Shown: positions 13,700-59,812 of the stretch, in pieces
Layout: each line of letters begins with the position of its first letter
How positions within the stretch are numbered: position 1 is the stretch's first letter
Origin: Candidatus Latescibacterota bacterium
GTDB lineage: Bacteria > Latescibacterota > UBA2968 > UBA8231
DNA length: 64,000 nt
NCBI GenBank assembly: GCA_965248265.1
Contig: CBDFJF010000001.1
Location: forward strand, 672,001-736,000
Direction: 5' to 3'
Translations under genes and position numbers: made by a program
The notes under the pieces: generated by a model
What the model was told of the DNA's origin: nothing
The model's input: the letters and a program-made list of their open reading frames with translations, nothing else
Database searches by the model: none

Positions 13700-14638
13700 T
13701 TAGGTGAGAGTACCGGCATCGAGGCTCCTGATCGCCTCCACAAGCTGCTGAGGGCGCGCCTTCGCGTATCTCAGAGCCATCTCCATCGATCTATGTCCCA
13801 TCAGCTCCATGATCCGATCGAGCGGCACACCCCTGTCCCTGAGCCTTGTAGCGAAGGTGTGGCGAAGCTGATGGAGGTGGACGTGCCCGACCTGCGACCT
13901 CATTCCAGCGCTGTGCAGCGACCTCTTAATGTCGCCGAATCGAATCACTGGCTGATCATGCATCGCCAAGGCCGGCTTTAGCTGTGCCAGCAGCGACCAG
14001 ACTCGATCCGTCATCGGGATCACGCGATAGTCCTTGTTCTTCGACTGCCGCACAGTCACCGTACCAGCCTCGAAATCGACATCACGCCAGATCAATCGTT
14101 GGATTTCCGAGCGTCTCATACCCGTGTCGGCTGCCATGATGACCACCTGTCTGGTGCGCTCCGGGCATGCTTCGATCAGCGATTCCAGCTCAGCGTCGCT
14201 GAGGGCGTCTGGTACCGTGCTCTGCTCCTTCAGCATCGTGACTCTGGATGTGGGGTCATCGGTGATGTAGTCCCAATTGCGCGCCGTTTTGAACAACGTT
14301 TTCAACGTCGCCAGGTAGCGGTTGGTTGTGGACGCGGTGACCCCGTCGAGGTTCCGCCGGCGGGTCAGATACCGATCGATCTGGCGGGTGGTGATGGATT
14401 CCAGGGGTAGGTCGCCAAACTCGTCATCCAGCTTCCGGAGCATGCCTGACAGACCTCGCCAGGTGTTGGGGCTCCAGCCGCCGAAATCCGTACGGAATTC
14501 GGCGAGAAACTGGCCGAAGGTGCAGCTCGTATCGCTGTCTGTAGCTGGGTTACACTGCCTATGCCCCTTTGCGGTCGCGGTCGTGGACCGTGCGCGCAAG
14601 TTCAAAGACCTCTGCAGTGTGTCGGTCATCTTGCTCAA
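13700..14638 (-). CDS. tyrosine recombinase/integrase (XerC/D-like), copy 1
   Basis: Catalytic R (TGMRRSE), K (QSKNK), HQLRH, GH and Y (LRYAK) all present. Confidence 0.92.
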   Translation of the reverse strand: MSKMTDTLQRSLNLRARSTTATAKGHRQCNPATDSDTSCTFGQFLAEFRTDFGGWSPNTWRGLSGMLRKLDDEFGDLPLESITTRQIDRYLTRRRNLDGVTASTTNRYLATLKTLFKTARNWDYITDDPTSRVTMLKEQSTVPDALSDAELESLIEACPERTRQVVIMAADTGMRRSEIQRLIWRDVDFEAGTVTVRQSKNKDYRVIPMTDRVWSLLAQLKPALAMHDQPVIRFGDIKRSLHSAGMRSQVGHVHLHQLRHTFATRLRDRGVPLDRIMELMGHRSMEMALRYAKARPQQLVEAIRSLDAGTLT

Positions 14639-15480
14639 CTGCTCAATCCACCTCCCACGGCATCGGTCTTCTCATGGGAGTCGACCCGAGACACATCACC
14701 AAGTCCCTTCCAAAGGACACGCCGCAGCGAGTCGAGTTCGGAGGTAGCCGGCAACGATTCGACTTGCCGGCCATGGGTCACAAAGGGGCCTCCGCATTCG
14801 GCAGGCAGATCGATCTCTATGGACTCGCCTCCTCCCGGCTGGTTGAGATGGACGCGAGCGTCACTGGTAGACCGTATTGGCAGCACAATGCTGGGCTGCA
14901 ATTCGAATGGCTCGAACCAGGCCAGCTGATGCGCCAGTTCGCTCAGCTCCCAACTGTCGAAGCACTGGTCGAGGAGTTCGATTTCGCTTGAGCTGCCATT
15001 CTCGACATTGATACCAGGAAACCCCCGATATGTGCACGTGCGTTTCTCACCACCGCGGGTGAAGTGCAGCAGGATCGTGCCAGAGTCTTTGAGCCCGAGT
15101 GCATACAGCGTGTGGAGCGTTGGAGCATCAGGCAGTTCAGGCTCTGGATAAAAACTCGCCTGAGCGTTCTCGATACCGGACTGAAGATCACTCATCAGCT
15201 CCGCTTCCTTGCGGACAGCTGCCCGGAGGTCGTACAGCTCCTCCGGCGTGCTGGCATTCCGGTACGTCAAGGGGCCCTCGAGCGCTCCCAGCCCTGATTC
15301 GACCTCGTTCTCGAAGTAAACCGGTACTCCTGAAGCCATGAGGTCGGTCACCATTGAGAATACCTCCTCGCGGTCGAGGCACAGCGATAGCTCGAGCTCT
15401 GCCGACTCCACTGGGCCGTTAGCAGCCTTGAGTATCTCGATTGCTGCTTGCTGATCGGGTTCAAGGTAGATGGGTGTCAT
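14635..15480 (-). CDS. winged-HTH domain hypothetical protein
   Basis: GAGGAGG RBS before ATG 15480. The N-terminal GPVESAELE...REEVFSMVTDLMASGVPV region resembles 30844-31191. Its stop overlaps the recombinase start (ATGA). Confidence 0.6.
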   Translation of the reverse strand: MTPIYLEPDQQAAIEILKAANGPVESAELELSLCLDREEVFSMVTDLMASGVPVYFENEVESGLGALEGPLTYRNASTPEELYDLRAAVRKEAELMSDLQSGIENAQASFYPEPELPDAPTLHTLYALGLKDSGTILLHFTRGGEKRTCTYRGFPGINVENGSSSEIELLDQCFDSWELSELAHQLAWFEPFELQPSIVLPIRSTSDARVHLNQPGGGESIEIDLPAECGGPFVTHGRQVESLPATSELDSLRRVLWKGLGDVSRVDSHEKTDAVGGGLSS

Positions 15481-15624
15481 CGCGGGACCTCCTCTGTGGT
15501 TGAGAGCTGGGGCTCTGTAATGCCCGATGTCGCTCGACGGGCGTTCTTGAGGCCCAAAAGTGACTGTGATCTGTCGATCTGATCTCTTCATCAGGGCAGA
15601 TTCAGGGGCACTCGGCTTGAGTGT

Positions 15625-16137
15625 TCAATTGCTGAACGGCAACTTTGTACATCCCACAGACACGCCGAAGACCTCGAATGGATTGTGCCAGTCGTCGTCG
15701 AGGTCGAAGGTTCCTTGGCATTGGTCTCTGGCTCTGCGCTGAAGTCGCTCGAAAGCAGGGTCCTCGGCTCGTGCGACTATGTGCCGATCGCCAAACTTAT
15801 CGTGGCGAGTCAGATACCGAAGAAGCTCGAGGATCTCTGACCGAGTGAAGAGGAAGTCAATTGTGTCTTCGGCGAACATTTTCTCGTCGCCGTCCAACTG
15901 GTCGTACTCTGGGATCAGCAGGCGATACATGTTCACCGTGTGTTTACGTCCAAGTCCGTACCAGATGAGGATCTCGCTCGCCGAGGGTCCAGTGGAAATT
16001 GAGTAGACTCCAAAGAGATCGCTTTTCACTTGATCGATGCTTTCAATGATCCTGAACAGCTTGTACAGAACGACGCAATCAGACCTCCCAGCATATTGGT
16101 GTGCCGGCGCAGCTTCTCCCGACTCGGATGACCTCAT
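15625..16137 (-). CDS. hypothetical protein
   Basis: 170-aa ORF, co-oriented within the module. Confidence 0.5.
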   Translation of the reverse strand: MRSSESGEAAPAHQYAGRSDCVVLYKLFRIIESIDQVKSDLFGVYSISTGPSASEILIWYGLGRKHTVNMYRLLIPEYDQLDGDEKMFAEDTIDFLFTRSEILELLRYLTRHDKFGDRHIVARAEDPAFERLQRRARDQCQGTFDLDDDWHNPFEVFGVSVGCTKLPFSN

Positions 16138-16150
16138 GGCTCAACGAATG

Positions 16151-16588
16151 TCATCGCCTTGCCCCTTTTGAGGCCGAGGTGCCGTTGAGGACTTTCTGGA
16201 ATGCCCCACCTTGCGCTACTGGATCCGCAAGGCTCAACAAGCGCCGAAGCCGACCCTCCGTAAGCAGAGAGATCCGCTCGTCATCGTCGTTAATGCCGAG
16301 GGCCTCCGTTTGGATGTCCTGCGGTAAACCGAGGAGGCGCAGATAATTGGCGATGGTGCTGCGTGGAGTACCGATCAAGCGAGCTAGTTCGGCCTGCGAA
16401 TCGGCCTGTCCAGATTCCAGAAGATCCTGGTAGTGCAGGGCTTGTTTGAGGGCGTTCGAATGTCTCTCTAACTTGAGGCGGCCAGGTTTTCGGTCTTTTC
16501 GACCTATCTGGATGTAGGGAGTGGTTCTCCTATGCCCTTGAAAAACATGAAACTTATCCCACACCAGCCCAAAGTTCGATGAATCCAA
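16151..16588 (-). CDS. ParB/Spo0J C-terminal-like HTH protein, copy 1
   Basis: ALHYQDLLESG..DSQAELARLIGTPRSTIANYLRLL.LP; conserved in three copies; start uncertain. Confidence 0.75.
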   Translation of the reverse strand: MDSSNFGLVWDKFHVFQGHRRTTPYIQIGRKDRKPGRLKLERHSNALKQALHYQDLLESGQADSQAELARLIGTPRSTIANYLRLLGLPQDIQTEALGINDDDERISLLTEGRLRRLLSLADPVAQGGAFQKVLNGTSASKGARR

Positions 16589-16955
16589 CGTTTGGGCTAC
16601 CAGATGTTACGTCTCGCTGAACCCTTGACACATCGTGGTCGAGGAGGGCGAGGCGGATTTGATCGGGGGTCCAGACGAGGTGGTTGATACGGAGGCGCAC
16701 CAGTTCCCTCCGCTCCTCTGGAAGGGCTTCCCGGTAGAGATCACCAAAGGTCGTCAGCGACTCGGTCATGGACTGGGCGCTGACGGCCTTTTCTTTTGCT
16801 GCCTCGATCTCCATGTCCAGGGACAGGATCTCATCATCGAGCTGCTCGGCCTGCTCCTCCAGCTCGTATATTTTTTTGCTGACGGATTTCATGCTCTTAC
16901 GGCGCCCCGCAAGCCCCTCTACGAGGGCGTCGATCTGGTCCTGCGCCCGGCGTCG
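16554..16955 (-). pseudogene. C-terminal remnant of a large serine recombinase (coiled-coil tail)
   Basis: ...QIDALVEGL...KIYELEEQAEQL...PEERRELVRLRINHLVW...GSP. The 5' part is lost at an abrupt junction near 16955. A paralogous stump lies at 32481. Confidence 0.6.
16574..16602 (+). mobile_element. att-like site resembling a tRNA 3' end (junction 1)
   Basis: GTTCGATGAATCCAACGTTTGGGCTACCA, lying inside the 3' end of the serine recombinase remnant. Confidence 0.6.
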
Positions 16956-17775
16956 AATTCAGAGGCAGTACGGCGCGGAAATCATCCCCGTACGCCCTGC
17001 AGGCCTGCCCCAGTTCTCCTTCCACGGCCGTCAACTCGCCAAGCACATCTTGCCGTGTCTGGATTGGGATCCCCCCGTCTTCCGTCGCCTTCCTCAGGGC
17101 TTGGATGTCCTGCACAAGCCGCCTCCGAATCGCCGCCTGAATGGCGAGCTGGCCTGACTGCGCCTCCACGTCCGTGAGACCCGGGCCTGGCAGCGGCTCA
17201 TTCACCCACTCCGGCTCTCCCGCGTAGACCTCGATCTCGTCCACGAAGGTGTACCGCCCCACGGGCCACACAACCAGGCTGACGTAGCGGCCGTGAGTCC
17301 TCAACTGGTCCGTGACAAATCGATGTACCCCATACTCCGTTGGTGAAGGGACTGGGGAGTGTGCCGCGCTCAACCCCACCAGCTCCCCGATCTCATGGAA
17401 TTCCTCGTCTTCACCCGCCGTGAAGACAAAGATCGCCTCCGGCCACTTCACGCTCGCAGTACCGGCCGCCGTATGGAACGAAATACCCCGTATCGGCCTC
17501 ACCGCACCCAGGTCCAGCGTCACGATCACGGGCTTCACTCTGACCCAGCCCACTGTCGACAGCTGTGTCCAGAGACTCTCCTCCGTCTGATCGTACACCC
17601 CATCCGTCAGCTGCGTGACATCAGCCGCGTCCTTGCAATGCCTGTAATTCGGCGCCTGCTCCATCGTGTAGCTCGCCCCCAACGCAATGTTCTCGCTCGG
17701 ACGATCCACCGCCGTGTCCTGCGCCCACACCCGTCCCACTATCAACAACCCTATTGCTGCCAATGTCCGTTTCAT
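16956..17775 (-). pseudogene. secreted discoidin/galactose-binding-like protein, C-terminally truncated
   Basis: Signal peptide and NIALGASY, QLTDG, LDLG, GRYV, FVDEIEVY motifs. The frame runs into recombinase sequence after AVLPLN. Confidence 0.6.
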
Positions 17776-18069
17776 CGCTTGTCTCCCGCTATCTGATCCC
17801 AGGCCTGCTGAGAATCTGCAGGAACGTGACCTGTGACCGTCACGCGTTGCGGAGAAGAGGCATTTCTCCTTGGCCTCTCAACGTAAGCTGCGCCCGGTAG
17901 ATCGAACAGGGCGCGAGGTTGCATGCCGAGTCTCCGCTTGTGATGGGAAATAGGAGCCGTGAAACACGCGCTCGCTTTTCCTATGTTATCGCTCACATCT
18001 CAGGCGATCGTTATCGCCCACATCTCGACGATCACAGGCAGACCTCCATGAGCAAGGACACTACCGTCA

Positions 18070-21000
18070 GTGAAGGATGAAGTCCCCATTGCGCTGTCTC
18101 TGTCCGGTGACGCGCGGATCGAGAGACTGCTCGAAGACGCCGTCGTCATCCCGGCCTTCACCTGCCGGCTGGACGGCTTCACGAACGACACGGTCACCGA
18201 GTACGCGAATGCCTCCGTCATCCGGCCGCCGTCCGTGTGCCGGGCCGGTCTCGTCAGCGAGCTGCGCGACGTCGTCCGCTCCCGCCGGCGGGGCAGGTAC
18301 TACCTCGGGTTCACGATGTACGCCGCCGCCGGCGCCGATGAAGCCGTCGACATCTGGATCGGGCACCGGTGTGTGGCCCGCGCGGCGCTGGCGGACCCCG
18401 ACAACCGCCTGCATCTGTTTTTTGCGCCCGAGAAGTTTGACTTCAAGGGGGGCGAACCGATCCGGTTGGTGACGAATGAGACTCGGGGCCCGTGCAGAAT
18501 CGAGAACGTAGTTCTGCTCGCCAGGAAGCCCCGTGGCGGCGGCGACGGGCTGAAGGTCGTGGCGCCCGCGGTGGATGTCCGCACTGATGGGGAGAGGCCG
18601 GTCGCCTACGTCACCTGGCGGACGAATCGCCCGGCGTCGGGCCGCCTGCGCTGGGGGCTGAAGGGGGCGAAGAAGAAGACGGTGCTCCTGCGGACCGCAT
18701 TGTCGAACCACGAGGTGGTGATCGGCAATCCGGCGGCCGGCGACTATGTGTACGAAGTCGATCTCGCGGACCGCTCGCGACGGCTCGAGGCACAGTATTC
18801 GGGTTCGTTTCGCGTGCGTCCGCCCAGAAAACACTCGGGGATTGAGAAGGGCCGTTTTCCCCTCGAGGTTGCCCAGCGATGTGAGCGCGCCTGGCCGGTG
18901 AGCGTGGGAGTGCCTTTCAAGAGAGGGACGGTCTCGAACATCGGCTCGATTCGCGTCATCGACTCATCGAAACGCGCATTGCCGACCCAGGTGGCGGCGC
19001 AGACCCGTTGGGACGATGGCTCGATCCAGTGGGCGCTCCTCGACTTCGAGAGCGACGGAGTTTCAGACTGTGCGGTCGAATTCGGGAAGTCGGTGCGCAA
19101 CGACACCCCTGGGGGAGTGCGAGTGCGCTCGTCGAGAAGACATGTCGAGGTCGTGACAGGGCCGCTCCAGGTCCGCATTCCGCGCGATCGGACCGTGATC
19201 CCCGGGCTGGTCGAAGTGCTGGAGGACGGCTCCCGCCGCTCGATGGGAGAGGCGACGGCGGTCACCGTCGTCGACGCCGATGGACGCGCCTATCGCAGCG
19301 GCGCGCCCGATTCGGTGACGGTTGAGGCCAGCGGCCCGGTGAGGGCTACCGTCTGCCTGGAGGTAACCCACCGGAGTCGCGGCGGGCGCGCATGCCTCCG
19401 GTCGGTCTTCCGGCTGCATTTCTTTGCCGGCAGCCGCCGCGTCAGGGTCGAGCACACGTTCGTGAACGACGTGTCGGACCGCGATTTCGAGCGGGTCCAG
19501 GCGTTGTCGCTCCGCATCCCCGTCGAGGTCGGCAACGTGCGGACATTGCAGGGCAAGGGCTGGCGGTCGCGAGCTGCCCGTGCGCGCATCGAGCAGCTCG
19601 AGGACGACCGCTTCGATCTCTACGAGGCGAGCGGCGTGCGCACGCGCGTGCAGCGGGTAGGTGGCGGCCGCCGGAGCAACGGGGCTGCATCCGTCACCGG
19701 TGATCGAGAGAGCGTGTCGGTGGCCGTCCGCGACTTCTGGCAGAATTACCCCAAAGCGCTGACTCTGGCGCGGGATTCGATCTTCGTCGAGATCCTCCCG
19801 CCCCTGGATTCGTCCCGCTACCCGCGGGGCGGTGAGCTGGAAGACCGGCTCTACTACTACCTGCTCGATGGGCACTACAAGCTTCGCAAGGGGCTCTCTC
19901 GCACCTCCGAGTTCTGGATTTCCTACGGGCAGGGCGAGGCGGCAGAACTCGCCGCCGCCGTGGCGTCTCCTCCCATCTACCGCGCCCCCCTGTCGCACTT
20001 CAACGACAGCGACGCCTGGACCCGTTTCCCGCCCAAGGACCCGTCTCCGCGACCGGAGTACGAGGAGTGGGTGGCGGCCGCCCGCGACGTCTACGAAAAG
20101 GACAGACAGACTACGCGCGCCTACGGCATGCTCAACTACGGAGACTGGTACGGCGAGGGGACATACAACTGGGGCAACATGGAGTACGACACCCCGCGGT
20201 GTTTCCTGCAGGAGTTCATCCGCGGCGGTGACGTGTCGTTCTTCCGCTGGGCCGATGAAGCGGCCAGCCACCTCGTCGACGTCGACACGTGCCACGCCGA
20301 TGGCGGTCCGATCCCGAAGCATTCACAGTACCTGCATTGCGTCGGTCACGTCGGCGGGTACTACCCCGAAGGGTACCGGTCAGCGATGTTCTCGACGCTG
20401 ACGATGCCGTCGCACACCTGGGTCGAAGGCCTGTTCCTCCACTCCCTGCTGACCGGCGACCGCAGAATCCGCGACAGCGCTATCGCCGTCTCCGAAGCCC
20501 TGGTCGGCGACATGGTCAACGACTACGACTTCACCAACTGCCGCGAATGCGGCTGGCACCTCATCCACCTGTCCGCCGCCTACCGGGCCACCGGGCGGCG
20601 CGTCTTCCTGAACGGCGCCCGCATCATCGTCGATCGCGTGCTCGAGCGGCAGCGCTCGTCAGGCGGCTGGGACCGGCTGATGGTGCCCGGCCACTGCCAC
20701 TGCGATCCGCCCCGGCACACCGGCAACGCGGGCTTCATGGTCGGCGTCCTGATGGTCGGGCTCAAGCGCTTTCACGAGGCCACCGGAGACGCCAGAGTGA
20801 GCGGCGCGATCGTCAGGGCAGCCGACTATTGCATCGAAGCCATGTGGGTGCCGGAAAGCCGCGCCTTCCGATACACGTGCTGCCCGTCGTCCTACGTGCA
20901 CCCTGCCGACATGGGAATGCTCAAAGGGATCGCCGCGGCGTACCAGTTCACCGGCGCAGAGCGTTTCAAGCAAATCCTGCTCGCCGGCGTGGAGACGGCG

Positions 21001-21105
21001 ATCGGCGGCAGGCGACCGCGGCCTCACCGGGGCGCGGGCAAGAGCATCTGCATGCCGATGCGCGGCGCCCTGCAGGTGATCGCTTCGCTGCCGGACGAGA
21101 CGTGA
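18070..21105 (+). CDS. exo-rhamnogalacturonan lyase-like (PcRGLX/YetA family) protein
   Basis: WPVSVGVPF, RWDDGSIQWALLDF, VRDFWQNYPK and YGMLNYGDW..WGNMEYD motifs; (alpha/alpha)-barrel-like C-terminus. Confidence 0.7.
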   Translation: MKDEVPIALSLSGDARIERLLEDAVVIPAFTCRLDGFTNDTVTEYANASVIRPPSVCRAGLVSELRDVVRSRRRGRYYLGFTMYAAAGADEAVDIWIGHRCVARAALADPDNRLHLFFAPEKFDFKGGEPIRLVTNETRGPCRIENVVLLARKPRGGGDGLKVVAPAVDVRTDGERPVAYVTWRTNRPASGRLRWGLKGAKKKTVLLRTALSNHEVVIGNPAAGDYVYEVDLADRSRRLEAQYSGSFRVRPPRKHSGIEKGRFPLEVAQRCERAWPVSVGVPFKRGTVSNIGSIRVIDSSKRALPTQVAAQTRWDDGSIQWALLDFESDGVSDCAVEFGKSVRNDTPGGVRVRSSRRHVEVVTGPLQVRIPRDRTVIPGLVEVLEDGSRRSMGEATAVTVVDADGRAYRSGAPDSVTVEASGPVRATVCLEVTHRSRGGRACLRSVFRLHFFAGSRRVRVEHTFVNDVSDRDFERVQALSLRIPVEVGNVRTLQGKGWRSRAARARIEQLEDDRFDLYEASGVRTRVQRVGGGRRSNGAASVTGDRESVSVAVRDFWQNYPKALTLARDSIFVEILPPLDSSRYPRGGELEDRLYYYLLDGHYKLRKGLSRTSEFWISYGQGEAAELAAAVASPPIYRAPLSHFNDSDAWTRFPPKDPSPRPEYEEWVAAARDVYEKDRQTTRAYGMLNYGDWYGEGTYNWGNMEYDTPRCFLQEFIRGGDVSFFRWADEAASHLVDVDTCHADGGPIPKHSQYLHCVGHVGGYYPEGYRSAMFSTLTMPSHTWVEGLFLHSLLTGDRRIRDSAIAVSEALVGDMVNDYDFTNCRECGWHLIHLSAAYRATGRRVFLNGARIIVDRVLERQRSSGGWDRLMVPGHCHCDPPRHTGNAGFMVGVLMVGLKRFHEATGDARVSGAIVRAADYCIEAMWVPESRAFRYTCCPSSYVHPADMGMLKGIAAAYQFTGAERFKQILLAGVETAIGGRRPRPHRGAGKSICMPMRGALQVIASLPDET

Positions 21106-21112
21106 CTGCGAG

Positions 21113-22321
21113 ATGAAGAAAATAGCCGCCATCATCACCGTCTTCTTCCGCGGCTCCCATGCCGACGTCATCGTCCCGAAGTTCGTGCTCGGCTTTCCCA
21201 CGGACGAGGGACTGCTCGCGCCCCGGGTCGAGGTCGTCTCCCTCTACATCGACCAGTTCCCCGAAAGGGACGTCGGCAGAGCATTCGCAGCCGAGCACGA
21301 CATCCCCATCTACCATAGCATCTCCGCGGCCCTCAAACGCGGTGGCGGCGAGCTGGATGTCGACGGCGTCCTCCTGATCGGCGAGCACGGCGATTACGCC
21401 TGGAACGAGAAACAGCAGCAGCTCTTCCCGCGCCGCTATTTCATGGAGCAGATCTGCGGCGTCATGGCCACGAGCGGCCGCGCGGTGCCCGTGTTCAACG
21501 ACAAGCACCTCTCTTACAACTGGCACGACGCCCGCTGGATGTACGACCGGGCGCGGGCCCTGGAAGCGCCCTTCATGGCCGGATCATCGCTGCCCGTGGC
21601 CTGGCGTAACCCGTGGCTGGAGCACGAGATGGACACGGAGCTGGAAGAGGCCATCGCCATCGGCTTCTCCGGGTTGGACATCTACGGCTTCCACACGCTC
21701 GAGGTGCTCCAATGCATGGTGGAACGCCGGCGCGGCGGTGAAACCGGAGTGCGCGCGGTGACCTGCCTCGAAGGGGATGCCGTCTGGCACGCCGCGGAGG
21801 AGGGCGTCTGGTCCCGCGAGCTGGGCGAGGCCGCGTGCGCCGCCATCGTTTCCAAACCCTCAGGCTCGATGGAAGAGCACTGCGACCATCCGGCGCTGTT
21901 CTCCGTCGAATACCGCGATCGCTTCAGGGGATCCGTGCTGATGCTGAACGGGTATGTAACCGATCTGGCCTACGCCTGCCGCGAGGCGGACGGCGAGATC
22001 TCCGCGACGGAGTTCCATTGTCAGGGCCACGGTCCGGGGGGACCGCACGCCCACTTCAGCTATCTCGGACTCAACATCGAGGAGATGTTCCTCAGCGGCA
22101 CCGCTGGCTATCCCGTGGAGCGCACGCTGTTGACCAGCGGCGTGCTCGAGGCGGCCCTGACGTCTCGTCACGAGGGCTACCGGCGAATTCAGACGGACTG
22201 GCTCGACGTCGAGTACCGCTCGCACGAGCGCCTGCGCTGGCGTCCGACGGCGCCTCGCCCGGGCGGAGCTTGTCTCGACGCGTGGCCGCCGACACGCAGC
22301 TTGGAGAAGGAGCAGGCATGA
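21113..22321 (+). CDS. conserved hypothetical protein, Gfo/Idh/MocA oxidoreductase-like
   Basis: VDGVLLIGEHGDY, PVFNDKHL, MAGSSLP and YGFHTLE motifs; operonic with its neighbours. Confidence 0.75.
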   Translation: MKKIAAIITVFFRGSHADVIVPKFVLGFPTDEGLLAPRVEVVSLYIDQFPERDVGRAFAAEHDIPIYHSISAALKRGGGELDVDGVLLIGEHGDYAWNEKQQQLFPRRYFMEQICGVMATSGRAVPVFNDKHLSYNWHDARWMYDRARALEAPFMAGSSLPVAWRNPWLEHEMDTELEEAIAIGFSGLDIYGFHTLEVLQCMVERRRGGETGVRAVTCLEGDAVWHAAEEGVWSRELGEAACAAIVSKPSGSMEEHCDHPALFSVEYRDRFRGSVLMLNGYVTDLAYACREADGEISATEFHCQGHGPGGPHAHFSYLGLNIEEMFLSGTAGYPVERTLLTSGVLEAALTSRHEGYRRIQTDWLDVEYRSHERLRWRPTAPRPGGACLDAWPPTRSLEKEQA

Positions 22322-23655
22322 GCGACAACAAGATCGTCCTGGTCGGCGGCGGCAGTTGCGGCTGGATCCCGAAGATCGTCAAGGACATGATGCTGACCGA
22401 GTCCATCGCTGACTCGCGCTTCGTCCTCTACGACATCGACAGAAAGGCGGCCGAGCTCGTCGCCGCGGTCCTGGAGAAGCTCAATGGGAGCTTGAAGACG
22501 GGAGCGACCTTCGTCCCGACGGACGACAGGCAGGCGGCTTTCGAGGGCGCCGACTACTTCGTCATCACCATCTCGACCGGCGGCCTGGACGCCATGGCCC
22601 ACGACCTGGCGATACCGGAGGAGTACGGCATCTACCACACCGTCGGCGACACTTCTGGACCGGGAGGATGGGCCCGCACCGTGCGCAACTTCAGCGTCTT
22701 CGAGTCGCTCGCGGAGGATTTCAACACCTACGCCAGTGGCGCGGTTGTGCTCAATTATACGAACCCCCTGACCACACTCACGGATGTCCTCTCACGACTG
22801 TGCCACGGTCCCGTCCTCGGACTGTGCCACGGTCTCTTCGAGAACATCCACAAGCTCATGGACATCTACGGGATCGAGGAGGAAGAGGAAATCGCCGTCA
22901 GCTACGGTGGCCTCAACCACTTCTTCTGGATCACCGAGGCCCGCACCAGAGACATCGACATCTTCACCGACCTGCGGGACAGGGTCGCTGAGGAAGGGCT
23001 CACGAGCATCCTCGAGCAGGCGGCTCAGAGAACCGGCAAACCGGCAGAGCCCCGCGAGCTGGCGACGGCGCTCTTCAACGAGACCGGGGCCGTCCCGTAT
23101 TTTGGTGATCGGCACACCTGCGAATTCTTCCCCTGCTACATCACCAGTCCCGAGGCGATGGAGCGGTACAAACTGGTGCGGACGACGGTCGACGAACGCC
23201 GGAAGGGCCTCCGTGAACGGCGGGAGAGGTTAGTAGAATTGACCGACGGCGAGATCCCGGACGAATACTTCGTGCGCAGCCGCGAGACGGCCGCCGACAT
23301 CATATCCGCCCACGCCACCGGCGGCGTCTTCATCGACGTCGGCAACGTCCCCAACCAGGGCCAGATCGCCAACCTCCCCGCCGGCACCATCGTCGAGACC
23401 GCCGTGCGCGTGGACCGGAACGGGTTTTCGCCGATCTGCTTTGGGCCCTTGCCCGACTCCGTGCTCCCGGCCGTCGAGCCGTATGCCCACCTGTTCGGCC
23501 AGGTGATCGAGGCCTGTTTCCGCAAGGACCGGAAGATGGCGTTGCAGGCATTGCGGATGGATCCTGTGTGCTCCCACCTCACCGGCGACCGCGTCGTCGA
23601 GCTGGGCGAGCGCCTTCTGAAAGCGCATGAGGCCTTCGTGCCGGCACTCAGATGA
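22318..23655 (+). CDS. glycoside hydrolase family 4 (NAD-dependent alpha-glucosidase/galactosidase)
   Basis: KIVLVGGGS, GDTSGPGG, LNYTNP, GLCHG and GLNHFFW motifs; ATGA overlap with the upstream gene. Confidence 0.92.
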   Translation: MSDNKIVLVGGGSCGWIPKIVKDMMLTESIADSRFVLYDIDRKAAELVAAVLEKLNGSLKTGATFVPTDDRQAAFEGADYFVITISTGGLDAMAHDLAIPEEYGIYHTVGDTSGPGGWARTVRNFSVFESLAEDFNTYASGAVVLNYTNPLTTLTDVLSRLCHGPVLGLCHGLFENIHKLMDIYGIEEEEEIAVSYGGLNHFFWITEARTRDIDIFTDLRDRVAEEGLTSILEQAAQRTGKPAEPRELATALFNETGAVPYFGDRHTCEFFPCYITSPEAMERYKLVRTTVDERRKGLRERRERLVELTDGEIPDEYFVRSRETAADIISAHATGGVFIDVGNVPNQGQIANLPAGTIVETAVRVDRNGFSPICFGPLPDSVLPAVEPYAHLFGQVIEACFRKDRKMALQALRMDPVCSHLTGDRVVELGERLLKAHEAFVPALR

Positions 23656-23944
23656 AGGCAGCGAGCGCGGGCGCACGACTGATGGCCGCTGAGATGTCCT
23701 CGAAGGAGTCGCCGGCCGGCGGAGGCGGCGCTACATCGCTTTGAAGTATGCGGCGCGGCCGACCACCGACGCACACGTTGAGTCCTTGAGGATGTGGTCT
23801 CCGAGCGTGTTCAGGCCCGAGGCGGTGCTCTTGAACAGCGATCGGCCGCGCATTCGGGGTCTGGTGGCAGATCTCGTGGAGCTGGGAAGAACGGATTAGC
23901 ACTCGCGGCCCCCGCAACGCGAATGGCAGCCGCTCGCCGACCAT

Positions 23945-25983
23945 GTTGAGTAGCCGGGGCTAGTCACCTAGCCCCAGCCCTCACCAGAGCCCAGCGAGCA
24001 GATTTCCCGCACTGGGCTCCTCCGTTAACACGTCTCGCGGTTAAGAAAACCAGATCGATACGACAATTCGAGGTTGCGGTAGCGGATACTGCCGAAGTAA
24101 GCCTCGATAGTATCTCGCCCATGTGAGGCGCGATCGCTGGCTACGGCGATTGAGCCACTTGTACCACGCCATCACTGCTGCGGATGTGAATAGGCTTACG
24201 CTGCGCCCATTCCCACTAATACCGAAGTAGTTGATGTGGCCCCGGATGCGTCGTACGAGGTCAGCGTGTTGCTCGGGGATCGGCCAATGGCGGTGTCGAC
24301 GACAGAGTCGATATAGCGCCTGTACTGATCGCCTGAGCCGATCACGCCGCGTCTTGCTCGTCAGCACCCATCGCCCCGTCCGGGCCCGTTGCCAATACCA
24401 CGTGAAGCCCAGAAAGTCGAAGGTACCTGGCCCCTTGCCCTTGATCTGCGCCTGTGATGGCCGCTCAAAAGGGATGAGCCGGGTCTTGTCCGGCTGCAGG
24501 GTCAGTCCGTATTTGTTCAGCCGCTTGCTCAGCACTTCCATCACCCGCTCTGCATCCTCCGGCAGTTCGAAACCAATGATGAAATCATCGGCGTATCGGA
24601 CCAACGTTGCTCTACGACGCAACCGCGGTCTGATCTCGACTTCAAACCACTCATCAAGGACATGATGCAGGTAAAGGTTGCCAAGCAGCGGCGACAAACA
24701 GGAGCCCTGTGCGGTGCCACGGTCCGGCGTCGAAAATTCCGCACCGTCCAGCACCCCAACGTGCAAGCACTTCCCTACGAGTCGGGTGATCGACCCATCG
24801 GGAATCCGCTCCTGGAGAAACTCCATCAGCTTGGATCGATCCAAACTGTCGAAGTAGGATTGGATATCCGCCTCCAGAATGACCTTCGCCTCCCCGTTCA
24901 TCACCACCCGATTCAACACCTTCAGGGCGTCATGGGCACTCCGTCCCGGCCGGAAGCCATATGAGCAGTCACGAAAATCCTGCTCGTAGACCGCCGCCAA
25001 CACCTCGCGTAACGCTTCCTGGACAATCTTGTCCTCGAAGCACGAGATGCCGATGGGACGGGTCTTCTTACCCTTACCGTCCTTGGGGATGTGGACTCTG
25101 CGAATGGGCTGGTGGCGCCACCGCTTACTGCGAAGCCGCTGGTGCAGATCCTGCAGATTGCTCTCCAGATCCTGCCCATACTGCTCCTTGGTCACGCCAT
25201 CCACCCCCACTGCGGCGCTCGGCTTTTGATGGTCGAACGCCCTCCGCAGCGCATCTACATCGATCAGGTGTGCGAGCGAGTGAAACTTGGCCTGCGGCTC
25301 TCGTCTCGCTCTTTCCGCTACTTCCAAAAGTCCCGGTGACATGGACTCCGAAGTCAATGCATCGGTCATGGTGCCCTCCTGAAGTTCGTATCAACACGGA
25401 CCGCCTTGGCTCCGCCGGGTCCGGTGCCAACCGTTCCCCGACTTCACAGCTACTACACGGTCCTCCGACTCCCTTACTCCGTCGGCCGCCGCTCCGGTTC
25501 CCCTCGCAAGCGACCTACCACGGTGCCCACGCTTGTTCTTGTTCGGCCACGCATGCGTGTGCTGACGCGCGGCGCGTCGGAGACTTCATCACCGGCTCTC
25601 CCGATCACCGGAATCTCCCGTGGAGAGACAAGGGCCTCCCAGGTTGCTGGATCATCCTCTGCGAGCGTGCCCTGGTCGTATCACACCCCGCCGGGGTGTC
25701 ATCGCCTCGCCCAATAGCGCCGACAACACTGCTGCCTTCAGGTACAACGGCACCCTCGGCTATCCCGGAACGTTCTGCATTTCAGGGCCGCCAATCGCAC
25801 GGCCCGCTCGCTCGCTGCCCTACTGCTTCGCCCGTCCCGTTACCGGGACGCACGCAAGGGCTCGCTTCTGGCCTGCTGGGCTCAGCTCTAGCCAGGCGGG
25901 CTTTGCACCCGCGGGACGACTAACCGTATTTCAAGAAGTATCACCTCCTTCTATTCCAACAGACCAGCCTAGCCTGGTCGCAT
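23945..25983 (-). mobile_element. group II intron, copy 1 (2,039 bp)
   Basis: Domain V GAGCCCAGTGCGGGAAATCTGCTCGCTGGGCTC, domain VI with bulged A, 3' end CTACTCAAC, 5' end ATGCGACC and an RT ORF. Confidence 0.93.
24041..25369 (-). CDS. ltrA: group II intron reverse transcriptase/maturase (no endonuclease domain)
   Basis: GVDGVT, IPK, R.IGI, SYGFRPGR, GT.QG, YADD and FDFLGF motifs plus X domain; ends without an HNH domain. Confidence 0.95.
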   Translation of the reverse strand: MTDALTSESMSPGLLEVAERARREPQAKFHSLAHLIDVDALRRAFDHQKPSAAVGVDGVTKEQYGQDLESNLQDLHQRLRSKRWRHQPIRRVHIPKDGKGKKTRPIGISCFEDKIVQEALREVLAAVYEQDFRDCSYGFRPGRSAHDALKVLNRVVMNGEAKVILEADIQSYFDSLDRSKLMEFLQERIPDGSITRLVGKCLHVGVLDGAEFSTPDRGTAQGSCLSPLLGNLYLHHVLDEWFEVEIRPRLRRRATLVRYADDFIIGFELPEDAERVMEVLSKRLNKYGLTLQPDKTRLIPFERPSQAQIKGKGPGTFDFLGFTWYWQRARTGRWVLTSKTRRDRLRRSVQALYRLCRRHRHWPIPEQHADLVRRIRGHINYFGISGNGRSVSLFTSAAVMAWYKWLNRRSQRSRLTWARYYRGLLRQYPLPQPRIVVSIWFS

Positions 25984-26213
25984 CCGTTGTAGCAGTGCGA
26001 TAACCGGTCGCGCATTGGCCGTCACCATTGCGAAGATGCGACGCAGAATCAGCCAATGTCAGCCAAGTTGACACAGGGCCAGCGTCCGGGATTCCTTAAT
26101 AGGAGCTACGAATCAAGCTCTGAGAGCACGCCATGGCGTTCTTGGCGCCCTGGTCGGAATGAGGCAGCACCAACATGGACTTCTGAAATGTTCAGTTTTG
26201 ATGGGCGGGAGAT

Positions 26214-29343: not shown

Positions 29344-29845
29344 GGTTTCCCTCCATCCGAGAGCCTATCGCTTAAGCAGCGTCGAGCTCTACCCCTTGAT
29401 GAATGGTCGCTGACGATGAGGATGCCGTCGCCGTACACGCAGAGGTCATGGGCTCGTTGAGGCAGGTTTTGGGTGCCGCAGGTTGTTCCGCGATGGCAAG
29501 GAGCGGGGCCAGGCATCAAAATGAGTTGTTTCGAGGTTGGTCTCCGCCCCTCCATATTTGCATCACAGTAAAGATTCCTCCTTGCGAACACACCCATTTT
29601 GTGGTGCATGCCTCCCGGCCAACGCCGGTCCAAATATGGAGGAAGGACGGCAAAAGGCGCCATGGACGTGACACCGCTGTAGCAAGGAGTACAAGCTCTG
29701 CAAAGCCCGCTCTGGACGCTCGATGCGTGGAGACGCACCACCACGCGGGGGCCGTCCTCTCGCAGCAGATTATCAGCGGCGGACTGACGAGCGGCAACGG
29801 CGAAGCTAGTCCATCGCCGCCTATTCCCGGGTTTTCCCGCGGTGG

Positions 29846-29889
29846 GAATCAGTCAAACGTGCGATGCCCGACGGGTATCTCCGTGATAT
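29846..29889. repeat. 44-bp palindromic intergenic repeat, copy B
   Basis: GAATCAGTCAAACGTGCGATGCCCGACGGGTATCTCCGTGATAT. Confidence 0.7.
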
Positions 29890-30661: not shown

Positions 30662-30769
30662 TCGAACAGCTCCGAAACCGGTGAAGGTCTGGCGACCCGT
30701 GCAGGCCCACGCCTTAGGAAACAGTGCAGCGTGAACCTCGTCAAGATTGGCTGCAAGACCGATAAGCGC

Positions 30770-30808
30770 GAATCAGTCGAATATCCGATGCTCGCCGAGC
30801 ATCGGAGT
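30770..30808. repeat. palindromic intergenic repeat, copy C
   Basis: GAATCAGTCGAATA-TCCGATGCTCG-C-CGAGCATCGGA-GT; 30/39 identical to copy A. Confidence 0.6.
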
Positions 30809-30843
30809 CTTGCAATGACGTCTGTCGAAGTCGGTCCCGCCTC

Positions 30844-32518: not shown

Positions 32519-32819
32519 TTGGGCTACCAGTTAACGTGTCTCGCTGAACCTTTGACACGGCCATAGGGTCGTCAAAGAGGGCGAGGCGTATTGGGGTGGG
32601 ATTCCAGACGAGGTGGTTGATCCGGAGCCTGAGTAGCTCCTGACGCTCCTCTGGGATGGCTGCCTGATATATCTCCCGGAAGGTCGTGAGCGAGGATCCC
32701 AGCGATTCGGCGCTCACGACCTTTTTCTTTGTCTGGTCGATCTGGAGATCCAGTTCCAGGATCTCATCATCCAGCTGCTCACGCTGTTCCTCCAGCTCGA
32801 CAATTTTCTGCCCGATGGA
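32481..32819 (-). pseudogene. C-terminal remnant of a large serine recombinase, copy 2
   Basis: SIGQKIVELEEQREQLDDEIL...PEERQELLRLRINHLVW...GSPSVGFIELWAGMG; cut at about 32820. Confidence 0.6.
32501..32529 (+). mobile_element. att-like site resembling a tRNA 3' end (junction 2)
   Basis: GTTCGATGAATCCAACACTTGGGCTACCA. Confidence 0.6.
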
Positions 32820-52800: not shown

Positions 52801-52925
52801 CGTACCTCTCTGACAATGCCTTACGCAACAACAAATGGGCCTCAGCCCGTACTTCTACGGATGTCACAGCGGCCACGAACATGATATATTGGGCTGAAAT
52901 GCGGATGGTTTCAGCCTTTGATTCT

Positions 52926-53094
52926 ATGCAGAGAATTGACCGCGAATCAGTTGAAAGAGCAGCGAGGCTCTACAAGACGAACATAGAGGCCAGCCAGGCC
53001 TTGGGGATGCATCCAACTGCATTTGGCAGAGCGTGCAGGAAGTATGGGATCGAAACGCCTGGTGCGAGGAAGATCAGATTGCGAAAGCGGGCAT
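52926..53094 (+). CDS. small Fis-like HTH protein, 3' end interrupted by the group II intron
   Basis: Paralog of 8218-8394; its last codons are displaced to about 55134-55142. Confidence 0.75.
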
Positions 53095-55133
53095 GTTGAG
53101 TAGCCGGGGCTAGTCACCTAGCCCCAGCCCTCACCAGAGCCCAGCGAGCAGATTTCCCGCACTGGGCTCCTCCGTTAACACGTCTCGCGGTTAAGAAAAC
53201 CAGATCGATACGACAATTCGAGGTTGCGGTAGCGGATACTGCCGAAGTAAGCCTCGATAGTATCTCGCCCATGTGAGGCGCGATCGCTGGCTACGGCGAT
53301 TGAGCCACTTGTACCACGCCATCACTGCTGCGGATGTGAATAGGCTTACGCTGCGCCCATTCCCACTAATACCGAAGTAGTTGATGTGGCCCCGGATGCG
53401 TCGTACGAGGTCAGCGTGTTGCTCGGGGATCGGCCAATGGCGGTGTCGACGACAGAGTCGATATAGCGCCTGTACTGATCGCCTGAGCCGATCACGCCGC
53501 GTCTTGCTCGTCAGCACCCATCGCCCCGTCCGGGCCCGTTGCCAATACCACGTGAAGCCCAGAAAGTCGAAGGTACCTGGCCCCTTGCCCTTGATCTGCG
53601 CCTGTGATGGCCGCTCAAAAGGGATGAGCCGGGTCTTGTCCGGCTGCAGGGTCAGTCCGTATTTGTTCAGCCGCTTGCTCAGCACTTCCATCACCCGCTC
53701 TGCATCCTCCGGCAGTTCGAAACCAATGATGAAATCATCGGCGTATCGGACCAACGTTGCTCTACGACGCAACCGCGGTCTGATCTCGACTTCAAACCAC
53801 TCATCAAGGACATGATGCAGGTAAAGGTTGCCAAGCAGCGGCGACAAACAGGAGCCCTGTGCGGTGCCACGGTCCGGCGTCGAAAATTCCGCACCGTCCA
53901 GCACCCCAACGTGCAAGCACTTCCCTACGAGTCGGGTGATCGACCCATCGGGAATCCGCTCCTGGAGAAACTCCATCAGCTTGGATCGATCCAAACTGTC
54001 GAAGTAGGATTGGATATCCGCCTCCAGAATGACCTTCGCCTCCCCGTTCATCACCACCCGATTCAACACCTTCAGGGCGTCATGGGCACTCCGTCCCGGC
54101 CGGAAGCCATATGAGCAGTCACGAAAATCCTGCTCGTAGACCGCCGCCAACACCTCGCGTAACGCTTCCTGGACAATCTTGTCCTCGAAGCACGAGATGC
54201 CGATGGGACGGGTCTTCTTACCCTTACCGTCCTTGGGGATGTGGACTCTGCGAATGGGCTGGTGGCGCCACCGCTTACTGCGAAGCCGCTGGTGCAGATC
54301 CTGCAGATTGCTCTCCAGATCCTGCCCATACTGCTCCTTGGTCACGCCATCCACCCCCACTGCGGCGCTCGGCTTTTGATGGTCGAACGCCCTCCGCAGC
54401 GCATCTACATCGATCAGGTGTGCGAGCGAGTGAAACTTGGCCTGCGGCTCTCGTCTCGCTCTTTCCGCTACTTCCAAAAGTCCCGGTGACATGGACTCCG
54501 AAGTCAATGCATCGGTCATGGTGCCCTCCTGAAGTTCGTATCAACACGGACCGCCTTGGCTCCGCCGGGTCCGGTGCCAACCGTTCCCCGACTTCACAGC
54601 TACTACACGGTCCTCCGACTCCCTTACTCCGTCGGCCGCCGCTCCGGTTCCCCTCGCAAGCGACCTACCACGGTGCCCACGCTTGTTCTTGTTCGGCCAC
54701 GCATGCGTGTGCTGACGCGCGGCGCGTCGGAGACTTCATCACCGGCTCTCCCGATCACCGGAATCTCCCGTGGAGAGACAAGGGCCTCCCAGGTTGCTGG
54801 ATCATCCTCTGCGAGCGTGCCCTGGTCGTATCACACCCCGCCGGGGTGTCATCGCCTCGCCCAATAGCGCCGACAACACTGCTGCCTTCAGGTACAACGG
54901 CACCCTCGGCTATCCCGGAACGTTCTGCATTTCAGGGCCGCCAATCGCACGGCCCGCTCGCTCGCTGCCCTACTGCTTCGCCCGTCCCGTTACCGGGACG
55001 CACGCAAGGGCTCGCTTCTGGCCTGCTGGGCTCAGCTCTAGCCAGGCGGGCTTTGCACCCGCGGGACGACTAACCGTATTTCAAGAAGTATCACCTCCTT
55101 CTATTCCAACAGACCAGCCTAGCCTGGTCGCAT
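53095..55133 (-). mobile_element. group II intron, copy 2 (apparently identical to copy 1)
   Basis: Same length and ends, offset 29,150 bp; ORF translations identical. Confidence 0.93.
53191..54519 (-). CDS. ltrA: group II intron reverse transcriptase/maturase
   Basis: Identical 442-aa protein with YADD. Confidence 0.95.
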   Translation of the reverse strand: MTDALTSESMSPGLLEVAERARREPQAKFHSLAHLIDVDALRRAFDHQKPSAAVGVDGVTKEQYGQDLESNLQDLHQRLRSKRWRHQPIRRVHIPKDGKGKKTRPIGISCFEDKIVQEALREVLAAVYEQDFRDCSYGFRPGRSAHDALKVLNRVVMNGEAKVILEADIQSYFDSLDRSKLMEFLQERIPDGSITRLVGKCLHVGVLDGAEFSTPDRGTAQGSCLSPLLGNLYLHHVLDEWFEVEIRPRLRRRATLVRYADDFIIGFELPEDAERVMEVLSKRLNKYGLTLQPDKTRLIPFERPSQAQIKGKGPGTFDFLGFTWYWQRARTGRWVLTSKTRRDRLRRSVQALYRLCRRHRHWPIPEQHADLVRRIRGHINYFGISGNGRSVSLFTSAAVMAWYKWLNRRSQRSRLTWARYYRGLLRQYPLPQPRIVVSIWFS

Positions 55134-55287
55134 CCGTTGTAGCAGGACGACGGTCGACAACAGTGGCAAGCTATCAATGGTCAGGTTTCTCGTACCAATA
55201 GGATAGTGCTAAGAAGTATTCGCCTGCGTAACCGGATATCATGACACACAATTCCGCTCATGATTTTCTTATGTGGATTAGAGTCCG

Positions 55288-56025: not shown

Positions 56026-56163
56026 CACAGTTTGAAGCCTTGTCGGTTCGATCGCCTTACTCATGAGCAACAAATTTTCCAAGTGCGCATGGATAGTGTC
56101 AACCGCGGGCCGTGAACTCCGGGGACGATTGCTCTCGGCAGCAGGCAGCCAAACAAGGTCATA

Positions 56164-58437: not shown

Positions 58438-58479
58438 GTGACTGCAGAAAATCCCAATCGCAACAGCAGCTGCCACAGC

Positions 58480-58765: not shown

Positions 58766-59018
58766 ATGGAAGAGCGGTCTACAAGGGAAAACAGCGACGG
58801 CTCTGACTGGCCCCGAGCGACCGGGAATCGTTGTGATATAATGATGGTCACCCGCCTACCTCTTCAAGGTATGGGAGAATGCATTTCGGGGGGAAGTCTT
58901 TCCCACGATGGAGATGCTCATCGACGAATCGTTGCAAATGCTGCAACGCTAAGGCCAAATCTTCTCTACTGATTATCCTAAGAAGCCACGGCGTCTGCCA
59001 GGGGGTCTGCAAGATCGA

Positions 59019-59345
59019 TTACCCGGTGTGTGGGCCCACTCCCTTTATCACAACGTCCACGTACAGATGCGCGTCTGTGATGTAGTCCCAATTGCGCGCC
59101 GTTTTGAACAGCGTTTTCAACGTCGCCAGGTAGCGGTTGGTTGTGGACACGGTGACCCCGTCGAGATTCCGACGTCGGGTCAGATACCGATCTATCTGGC
59201 GGGTAGTGATGGACTCCAAGGGCTGGTCGCCAAATTCCTCATCGAGCTTCCGGAGCATTCCGGACAGACCGCGCCACGTATTGGGACTCCAACCGCCGAA
59301 ATCCGTGCGAAACTCCCCGAGGAATTGGCCGAAGGTAGGGTTCAT
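59019..59345 (-). pseudogene. tyrosine recombinase, copy 3, truncated before the catalytic domain
   Basis: Matches copies 1 and 2 up to WDYITD (about 59072), then unrelated sequence. Confidence 0.85.
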
Positions 59346-59757
59346 GATCCTCCTCCAGCTTTAATCAAGCGTTTGAAGCCCTGTTTCTGTGCTCGCTTGT
59401 CTTTGCCGACGAGCGCCCGAAGACGAGGTTCGGTGATAACTCCAAGGAGCTCATCTGAGTCGTCCAGGTGCAGAGCGAAGTCTTGGATTTCATCGTCGAG
59501 TCTGAGCAGCCTCAGATAGGCCGAGATCGTCGTATGCGGAGTATCAGGCAAGCGAGCTTACCCTGAGAATCAGCCTGTCCCGAGTCCAGAAGATCCTGGT
59601 AGTGCAGGGCTTGTTTGAGGGCGTTCGAATGCCTCTCGAACTTGAGGCGGCCAGGTTTTCGGTCTTTTCGGCCGATCTGGATATAGGGAGTGTTTCGCTT
59701 ATGCCCTTGAAAAACATGGAACTTATCCCACACGATCCCATGGTTAGTTGAATCCAA
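59342..59757 (-). pseudogene. ParB-like HTH protein, copy 3, frameshifted
   Basis: Two frames (59512-59772 and 59342-59551) each match half of copies 1 and 2; short deletion near 59545. Confidence 0.75.
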
Positions 59758-59771
59758 CGTACGGGCTACCA
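59750..59771 (+). mobile_element. attR-like tRNA 3'-end fragment (probably tRNA-Glu)
   Basis: GAATCCaaCGTACGGGCTACCA equals T-loop/T-stem/acceptor/CCA with a 2-nt insertion; followed by a terminator. Confidence 0.65.
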
Positions 59772-59777
59772 ATACTG

Positions 59778-59812
59778 AGGGGGATCTGAGTTTTAGAGCT
59801 CAGATCCCCTTT
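59778..59812 (+). terminator. rho-independent terminator hairpin
   Basis: AGGGGGATCTGAGTT-TTAG-AGCTCAGATCCCCTTT. Confidence 0.75.

Follow-up and report, generated by a model that had tools for sequence, protein, structure and literature searches.

The 64,000-nt stretch of DNA considered here (hereafter the window; C1:672001-736000) comes from the 7.32-Mb, two-contig genome of a marine, uncultured Candidatus Latescibacterota bacterium (genome G000; contigs C1 and C2) and carries three copies of a 9-base core, GGGCTACCA, each with a ParB-type helix-turn-helix (HTH) gene and a Xer-like tyrosine recombinase gene or gene fragment on its left and, in the case of the first two, the tail of a large serine recombinase (LSR) gene on its right. 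ARAGORN found no tRNA gene within the window; run on the whole genome, it placed a plus-strand tRNA-Glu(CTC) gene at C1:646463-646538 (window -25537..-25462), 25.5 kb upstream of the window. This tRNA ends in ...CGTACGGGCTACCA, and its last 14 nt are identical to core 3. We consider it likely that the locus consists of three decayed integrative islands, A, B and C, arranged in tandem at the 3' end of tRNA-Glu(CTC) and belonging to a family with an LSR-type integrase.

The array spans 85 kb, of which islands A (beginning at the tRNA, upstream of the window), B and C take up 42,064, 15,927 and 27,242 nt, each with an LSR stub at its start and a ParB-type HTH gene and Xer-like tyrosine recombinase at its end (Table 1). 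The core was found four times against 0.33 expected matches, a count reached in none of 100 shuffled sequences. The three plus-strand copies, each preceded by a T-loop-like GAATCC, lie at the ends of a 300-nt direct repeat, two copies of which are 86% and 74% identical to the third, taken as reference; to the right of cores 1 and 2 similarity continues for about 290 nt, and to the right of core 3 it ends. The fourth copy, on the minus strand at 30334, was considered as an inverted spare att site and rejected for want of any similarity between its arms and those of the cores; we take it as a chance match. A GTTC-N16-core-N16-GAAC symmetry seen by eye at cores 1 and 2 was likewise rejected, 211, 488 and 496 of 500 shuffles being as good. 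Viewed through the rules that Islander applies to tandem arrays, the locus offers an intact tRNA whose last 9 nt (at core 3, 14 nt) recur three times in the same orientation; as to an integrase of the islands' own, the tyrosine recombinase is full-length in islands A and B and a fragment in island C, and the three serine integrase genes are stubs.

The island A stub is convergent with tRNA-Glu(CTC), whose last 41 nt it reads in antisense. It matches Zn_ribbon_recom with 25.6 bits against a cut-off of 25.3, over the second half of the domain only (protein domains were assigned with Pfam and NCBIfam profiles at family cut-offs, and intron RNA with Rfam). No more LSR sequence is present upstream of it, where a group II intron lies. 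The stubs of islands B and C have no Pfam match, hold only the region C-terminal to the zinc ribbon and align with full-length LSRs of relatives; the reading frame of the island B stub crosses core 1 and overlaps the start of the ParB gene by 35 nt. A profile hidden Markov model (HMM) of the full-length relatives matches the three stubs only from positions 325, 415 and 437 onward, the truncation points being different in each. The catalytic part of the LSR is missing from all three islands, so that the array would be fixed and unable to move by itself.

The hairpin behind core 3 comprises 14-16 bp and a T-rich tail and is more stable than any of 200 shuffled sequences; a simple terminator scan gave no call for it. 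At 30 tRNA-Glu(CTC) loci of the family, where hairpins were judged by eye, the CCA end is followed by a hairpin in 19 (17 of them with it at most about 10 nt away, the other two with it 27-45 nt downstream), by an LSR gene or stub in five (G000, G005, G008, G019 and G021) and by something else in three, the remaining three being cut too short to judge. Because tRNA-Glu(CTC) is followed by a terminator hairpin at 19 of these 30 loci, we interpret the hairpin after core 3 as the displaced native terminator; similar hairpins also stand behind the attR ends in G019 and G008.

Much of this layout had been proposed by an earlier, sequence-only reading of the window. Its threefold module of tyrosine recombinase, ParB-like HTH gene and core is borne out, with the ParB gene split and the recombinase reduced to a fragment in the third copy, and what it had described as serine-recombinase stumps after cores 1 and 2 are LSR tails homologous to the stub behind the tRNA. 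It had singled out core 3, followed by a terminator, as the most tRNA-like of the cores, in keeping with the 14-nt identity to the tRNA end and the hairpin. Its prediction of an upstream plus-strand tRNA, probably for Glu, with a convergent serine recombinase behind it corresponds to tRNA-Glu(CTC) and the 215-aa frame with its Zn_ribbon_recom match. The reading had further considered islands B and C immobilised by loss of the 5' end of the integrase gene; this stands, and only the implied restriction to these two islands has to be given up, island A also being left with a stub.

Table 1. Features of the tandem array. Positions are those of the window unless preceded by C1; identities are at the amino acid (aa) level unless stated otherwise
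Feature	Position	Strand	Remarks
Island A LSR stub, 215 aa	C1:646498-647145	-	directly behind tRNA; Zn_ribbon_recom
Island A Xer-like tyrosine recombinase, 312 aa	13700..14638	-	Phage_integrase 96 bits
Two open reading frames, 318 aa and 170 aa, island A only	14635..16137	-	between ParB-HTH and tyrosine recombinase
Island A ParB-type HTH protein, 145 aa	16151..16588	-	HTH_ParB 43.8 bits; start 5 nt from core 1
Core 1 (GGGCTACCA)	16594..16602	+	internal attP-like junction, island A/island B
Island B LSR stub, 112 aa	16554..16892	-	C-terminal; 66% to tRNA-side stub; HMM positions 415-539 of 553
Group II intron, island B	23942..25995	-	reverse transcriptase TIGR04416 319.9 bits, cut-off 300
Island B Xer-like tyrosine recombinase, 280 aa	31263..32105	-	82% to copy A; start overlaps ParB stop by 19 nt
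Island B ParB-type HTH protein, 143 aa	32087..32518	-	70% to copy A
Core 2	32521..32529	+	internal attP-like junction, islands B/C
Island C LSR stub, about 92-100 aa	32484..32819	-	C-terminal, crosses core 2; 57% to tRNA-side stub; HMM positions 437-539 of 553
Group II intron, island C	53092-55145		identical copy of island B intron (100% over 2054 nt)
Island C tyrosine recombinase, N-terminal fragment, 108 aa	59019..59345	-	catalytic domain lost
Island C ParB-type HTH gene, frameshifted	59345..59799	-	two frames: 59515-59799, 59345-59557
Core 3 (attR)	59758..59771	+	14 nt identical to tRNA-Glu(CTC) 3' end, GGGCTACCA from 59763; distal array end
Displaced native tRNA terminator hairpin	59777..59812	+	folding free energy -26.8 kcal/mol, z -3.84

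Large serine recombinases at tRNA genes of related genomes

The relatives consulted were Latescibacterota metagenome-assembled genomes, the whole set of related genomes numbering 61 with G000. The 215-aa stub as query gave a match in 21 of them (G000 included), and LSR open frames of 550-577 aa are present in four of these 21. Four full-length LSRs were extracted (one from G021, two from G048 and one from G045; 541-562 aa from the first start codon), all of which combine Resolvase (114-132 bits), Recombinase and Zn_ribbon_recom domains; a YARVST motif is also present in relatives. A convergent tRNA gene lies at the C-terminal end of the LSR match in 11 of 12 loci of a first set, the twelfth being cut by a contig end, and within 300 nt in 14 of 17 loci of a second set, 13 of those within about 60 nt; the two sets have several genomes in common and are not independent. 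Six kinds of tRNA are targeted: Glu(CTC), Gln(CTG), Gln(TTG), Met, Asn and Arg(CCT). Stubs predominate, 12 of the 17 loci matching only the last 49-135 residues of the LSR, which is where the search pattern lies, so that shorter remnants would escape.

The LSR frame crosses the junction into the tRNA or the ParB side in all seven genes or stubs examined, and the distal end is occupied by a ParB-HTH gene in the three islands of G000 and in G019, G021:C3, G008 and the two islands of G048, G048a and G048b. The last two are intact and carry an LSR, RadC, a Rad52-like protein, ParB-HTH and defence cargo (AbiC-like, ThsB-TIR); no tyrosine recombinase was found among the 20 open reading frames scanned in them, a sample that does not include every small frame. 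A weak tblastn match of the tyrosine recombinase inside G048a was a false lead that falls in the RadC gene. Among five genomes searched and ten stretches fetched, a close homologue of the tyrosine recombinase next to ParB was encountered only in G000 and G019.

The position of the crossover shows most clearly in occupied and empty sites at tRNA-Gln(TTG) in the genus of G048. The attL of G048a (25 kb) is composed of the tRNA and the P' arm of the element, its attR of the ParB-side arm, GGGCAACCA and a terminator, and at the empty sites of G051 and G087 tRNA-Gln(TTG) is directly followed by that same terminator. Apart from one base, the core and about 70 nt to its right agree between the attR of G043:C10 and the attB of G087. 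This comparison of attL, attR and attB places the crossover within the last nine bases of the tRNA, matching the 9-base core of the window. In the attR of G019, GGGCTACCA is immediately flanked by non-tRNA bases on its left and by a terminator on its right. G021 has equal-scoring LSR matches with an identical P' arm on two contigs, beside tRNA-Glu and tRNA-Met respectively, and the left arms of these two junctions share only GCTACCA. The empty sites that the sequence-only reading had expected in relatives were thus recovered in other genera and at tRNA-Gln(TTG) (G051, G087), and not in the same species. A search of the 61 family genomes for a tRNA-plus-hairpin pattern returned none; this pattern was overly strict and was replaced by the tRNA-query census described above. 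When the window flanks were compared with five relatives, synteny was confined to the tRNA itself.

G043:C2 was considered as a naive empty site, which would put the crossover 11 nt downstream of the tRNA, and was rejected because the tRNA-Gln(TTG) att sites show these 11 nt to be element-derived. There (L086/L095; tRNA-Gln(CTG) at L086:681-754), the 11 bases before the terminator agree at 10 of 11 positions with the start of the element-side arm, and nothing else of an island is present; the locus looks like a minimal scar after loss of the whole element. At L025:3150-3810, the right end of the tRNA-Gln(CTG) island of G048:C1, two attR-like joints lie 544 nt apart and carry the same 57-nt terminator, native to tRNA-Gln(TTG) in related genomes, and a short peptide resembling an LSR tail is joined in frame to the ParB gene on its upstream side, an arrangement suggesting that the element brought DNA flanking one tRNA-Gln site along to the other. 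In G000 itself, a 43-residue fragment with 58% aa identity to the LSR stub is encoded at C1:987944-988072, about 1 kb downstream of tRNA-Gln(TTG) (C1:986832-986906), and is probably the scar of another island of the same family.

Choice of the integrase and origin of the array

The LSR is in our view likely to be the integrase, since the scanned frames of the intact relatives contain no tyrosine recombinase and, in the genomes and stretches searched, a close homologue of the tyrosine recombinase stands next to ParB in G000 and G019 only. The latter enzyme looks like a lineage-specific add-on and not like part of the backbone; the dual-recombinase backbone envisaged by the sequence-only reading is accordingly not general, the intact islands of relatives combining an LSR with ParB-HTH. 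In the element as we picture it, the LSR gene would lie on the tRNA-proximal side, convergent with the tRNA, its frame spanning the putative crossover core (the last nine tRNA bases, GGGCTACCA), and the distal end would be formed by a ParB-type HTH gene starting a few bases from the core, followed in G000 by the Xer-like recombinase. Islands would have arrived one after another at the tRNA end, and later deletions would have cut every LSR gene to a stub.

A number of observations weigh against this interpretation. A six-frame search of the open reading frames with a profile of the full-length relatives found the N-terminal resolvase catalytic domain of this LSR clade nowhere in the genome; it matched the three stubs, one small resolvase and, on the other contig, a distant LSR of full length. 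Identity over 9-20 nt at a tRNA 3' end and tandem accretion are hallmarks of tyrosine integrases, and a tyrosine recombinase gene is present in each island. Canonical large serine integrases are generally described as recombining attP with attB only, not attL or attR, which does not account for the entry of a second and third element into an occupied site. A shuffle test revealed no significant dyad symmetry around the cores, the best centres reaching 10-12 of 24 matches. The GC content of the array equals that of its flanks, and no replication, transfer or phage genes were found in the islands, which hold metabolic and regulatory genes only. Finally, the exact core-3 junction expected of an empty site in the same species was absent from the metagenome and genome contig collections searched, and the known empty sites come from other genera or from the tRNA-Gln of a relative. 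As to the re-use of an occupied site, the element-side arm might mimic the tRNA end so that attR passes as attB, the specificity might be relaxed in the manner of Ccr, or later elements might have inserted by homologous recombination via a shared block.

The presence of a tyrosine recombinase gene or fragment 0.5-2.9 kb from each core, together with the 9-14 nt of tRNA 3'-end identity and the tandem arrangement typical of tyrosine integrases, could be taken to mean that the Xer-like enzyme is the integrase and the LSR stubs are remnants of another element family at the same site. We regard this as improbable: across genera the gene abutting the tRNA is the LSR tail and not the tyrosine recombinase, whose restricted occurrence beside ParB and absence from the scanned frames of G048a and G048b were described above; the enzyme is short (280-312 aa) and Xer-like, an arm-binding domain was not found in profile searches, and the genome has other paralogues, about 80% identical, at sites that lack ParB, LSR stub and core. 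These recombinases belong to the Phage_integrase family (96-103 bits, cut-off 27.1) and score well below the thresholds of XerA (121-122 bits, cut-off 220) and XerC (96-99 bits, cut-off 335), and they were not assigned to XerC, XerD or XerA. The ParB-HTH proteins match HTH_ParB domains only (residues 45-135) and fall outside the ParB/Spo0J/Noc family (parB_part 29.5 bits, cut-off 58.45), their PDB matches spanning only the DNA-binding part of ParB/Noc. The two genes form an operon-like pair, overlapping by 19 nt in island B, and this pairing, the expected reluctance of canonical LSRs to use attL or attR and a 55-nt hairpin-like repeat 3' of the full-length tyrosine recombinase copies, a candidate site, would fit a division of labour in which the LSR inserts first and the Xer-like enzyme with ParB-HTH adds elements to the occupied site or resolves circular multimers. 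Such a joint action appears improbable, given that relatives devoid of this tyrosine recombinase also have several LSR stubs per genome.

Whether the array might have arisen in place by segmental duplication, or be a product of mis-assembly, was considered in the light of a block of about 200 nt beside each core (16399..16602; about 32326-32529 and 59570-59771) that is 85-97% identical among the three copies and at which short-read contigs break. Outside this block, however, the copies differ as much as those of other genera, the rest of the ParB genes showing 47-67% nucleotide identity, and the LSR stubs are cut at different points. The divergent 3' halves of the ParB genes, the different stub cuts and a cargo that is unrelated apart from introns favour separate arrivals over duplication in situ, and a contig bridges core 2; we hold an origin by duplication or mis-assembly to be very unlikely. 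Across genera the same block is only 58-63% identical, and this contrast between high identity within the array and low identity among genera argues for homogenisation in place, presumably by gene conversion or homologous exchange between tandem copies, and not for a universal constraint on the sequence. Island C is probably the oldest of the three, as it has the shortest stub, a frameshifted ParB gene and a truncated tyrosine recombinase; new elements would then have entered at the tRNA side.

Public reads were consulted in the form of Logan contigs only. Runs X15 and X16, both from one sample that is probably the source, cover 30 of 30 bins. Core 2 is bridged by one X16 contig and core 1 by none of the contigs listed; these short-read contigs break at the repeats adjacent to the cores. 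None of the joints listed skips island B. One joint leads from 32821 back to 16915 with 26 other letters between and probably derives from a paralogous locus, and the Logan contigs yielded no evidence of a circular junction or of excision. Runs X1 and X3, from other studies, are limited in their coverage to parts of the island B cargo, and no conclusion can be drawn from the parts left uncovered. We note that X1 is a seawater metagenome whose contigs cover parts of 17750-23708, where island B carries glycan enzyme genes; its two longest listed pieces differ from the window at 5 of 2225 nt and at 26 of 1301 nt, near-matches that point to the presence of the organism or a close relative in independent samples.

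Relation to known integration systems

A close parallel in behaviour is offered by the staphylococcal cassette chromosome (SCC), in which LSRs insert islands at the 3' end of a housekeeping gene without destroying it, and which is known for tandem composites, repeated cores and many decayed copies. Among NCBIfam families, a full-length relative scores best with CcrB (188 bits) and CcrC (162 bits); these scores lie far below the cut-off of 900, and the target is a tRNA and not rlmH, so that the enzymes are not SCC/SCCmec Ccr recombinases. The islands described here differ further from SCC in having one recombinase gene instead of a ccrAB pair, placed at the element edge and reading across the att site, and in their host, an uncultured marine phylum. 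Phage-type large serine integrases (TP901-1, A118/LI and SPbeta SprA) have the same domain architecture as the full-length relatives and provide the nearest matches among solved structures (catalytic domain of TP901-1, E 6.7e-20; A118, E 5e-7; SprA/YokA, E 2e-6). The known targets of these integrases are protein-coding genes or intergenic sites. Neither the islands described here nor the two intact relatives scanned yielded any phage genes.

Arrays attributed to tyrosine integrases by Islander and TIGER, as well as the accretion of integrative and conjugative elements and cis-mobilizable elements (ICE/CIME), show the same layout, with an intact tRNA, direct copies of its 3' end and native downstream sequence displaced; the difference is that the enzyme linked to the tRNA across relatives is here a serine recombinase, the Xer-like one not being conserved. 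The portion of the Islander paper available to us states that only tyrosine integrases were known to target tRNA genes, and lists 125 tandems of at least two islands and four of at least three (PMC4383910). Serine recombinases at tRNA genes have been reported before, though seldom. Eight Mycobacterium serine recombinases of integrative and conjugative elements from actinomycetes (AICEs) share one tRNA-Leu gene in an account that, in its accessible part, calls such integration rare and cites phage phiRSM1 as the sole earlier case (Ghinet et al. 2011, PMC3218068); the resolvase-like Int of that phage is placed at a tRNA-Ser 3' end in the available part of another paper (PMC4471427). Compared by these partial descriptions only, the likeness is that serine recombinases integrate into tRNA genes, and the difference that the AICEs are conjugative elements of actinomycetes and phiRSM1 is a filamentous phage with a small serine recombinase; neither tandem arrays nor a ParB-HTH end module are mentioned in the accessible text. 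Serine integrases at tRNA genes are not treated in PMC12424338, nor in the available portions of PMC12884075, PMC10484663 and PMC10865867; the supplementary tables of TIGER, Islander and Integrase-On-Demand may list some. The tandem accretion of islands at a tRNA is already known; here, in Latescibacterota, it is probably the work of a serine instead of a tyrosine integrase.

With the LSR as integrase, an entire clade of large serine integrases in an uncultured phylum would have tRNA 3' ends as its natural targets, and genome sequences directly reveal the att sites of an intact relative. Such enzymes are of practical interest, as their targets are short, strongly conserved and found in every cell. 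An island finder that admits no integrases but those of the tyrosine type at tRNA genes would credit the array to the Xer-like recombinase. More tentatively, and with considerable doubt on our part, the islands could represent a phylum-wide element family in which a large serine integrase occupies the tRNA 3'-end niche, more commonly that of tyrosine integrases, with an att site in its own last codons and just upstream of a ParB-HTH gene, in some cases with a Xer-like recombinase gene; integration would then re-tail the integrase and cut the ParB-HTH operon from its promoter, a switch that would report whether the element is integrated or circular, and attR, with the element-side arm resembling the tRNA end, might pass as attB, allowing serial accretion.

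Introns, cargo and paralogues of the recombinase

The array is a preferred home of group II introns, holding four of the six full-length copies of the genome in 1.2% of its length. Both introns of the window qualify as group II introns by Rfam (RF02005, 99.3 bits; RF00029, 46.3 bits). The two others lie in island A upstream of the window (C1:647279-649328 and C1:655011-657060), one of them about 130 nt upstream of the island A LSR stub, and are 99.8% identical to each other and 89.6% to the window pair.

The cargo comprises ECF sigma/TPR proteins, glycoside hydrolases, acetyltransferases, kinases, a FliG paralogue, a radical-SAM enzyme and an LRR protein, and the array, with its ECF sigma factors, glycan enzymes and FliG paralogues, can be regarded as an immobile reserve of accessory genes 85 kb in length. 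With the FliG-like gene of island C (38486-39529), the number of such paralogues in the genome comes to six, two of which are 92-97% identical, and for a flagellar switch protein this is an unusual expansion; an ECF sigma factor of island A (L002:3150-4355) bears a FliM-like C-terminal region. For the 318-aa and 170-aa frames between the ParB-HTH and tyrosine recombinase genes of island A, profile searches gave no family match and the genome no paralogue.

Two more copies of the Xer-like recombinase, about 80% identical, are located on the other contig, away from any ParB gene or core. At C2:3930247-3932318 (L050:9247-11318) one such paralogue (about 80% aa identity) lies directly downstream of a small resolvase (195 aa; Resolvase plus HTH) and an XRE-type HTH gene, a second and different pairing of serine and tyrosine recombinases in this genome. 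The 55-nt repeat referred to above contains an imperfect hairpin and is found just 3' of every full-length Xer-like recombinase gene; its copies lie at 13256-13310, 29835-29889 and 30759-30813 in the window and at C2:3927035-3927167, C2:3930144-3930190 and C2:3034413-3034513 elsewhere, as well as at two loci with no Xer-like gene (C2:1145209 and C1:177611). Candidate roles for this repeat are those of terminator, small RNA and recombinase site.

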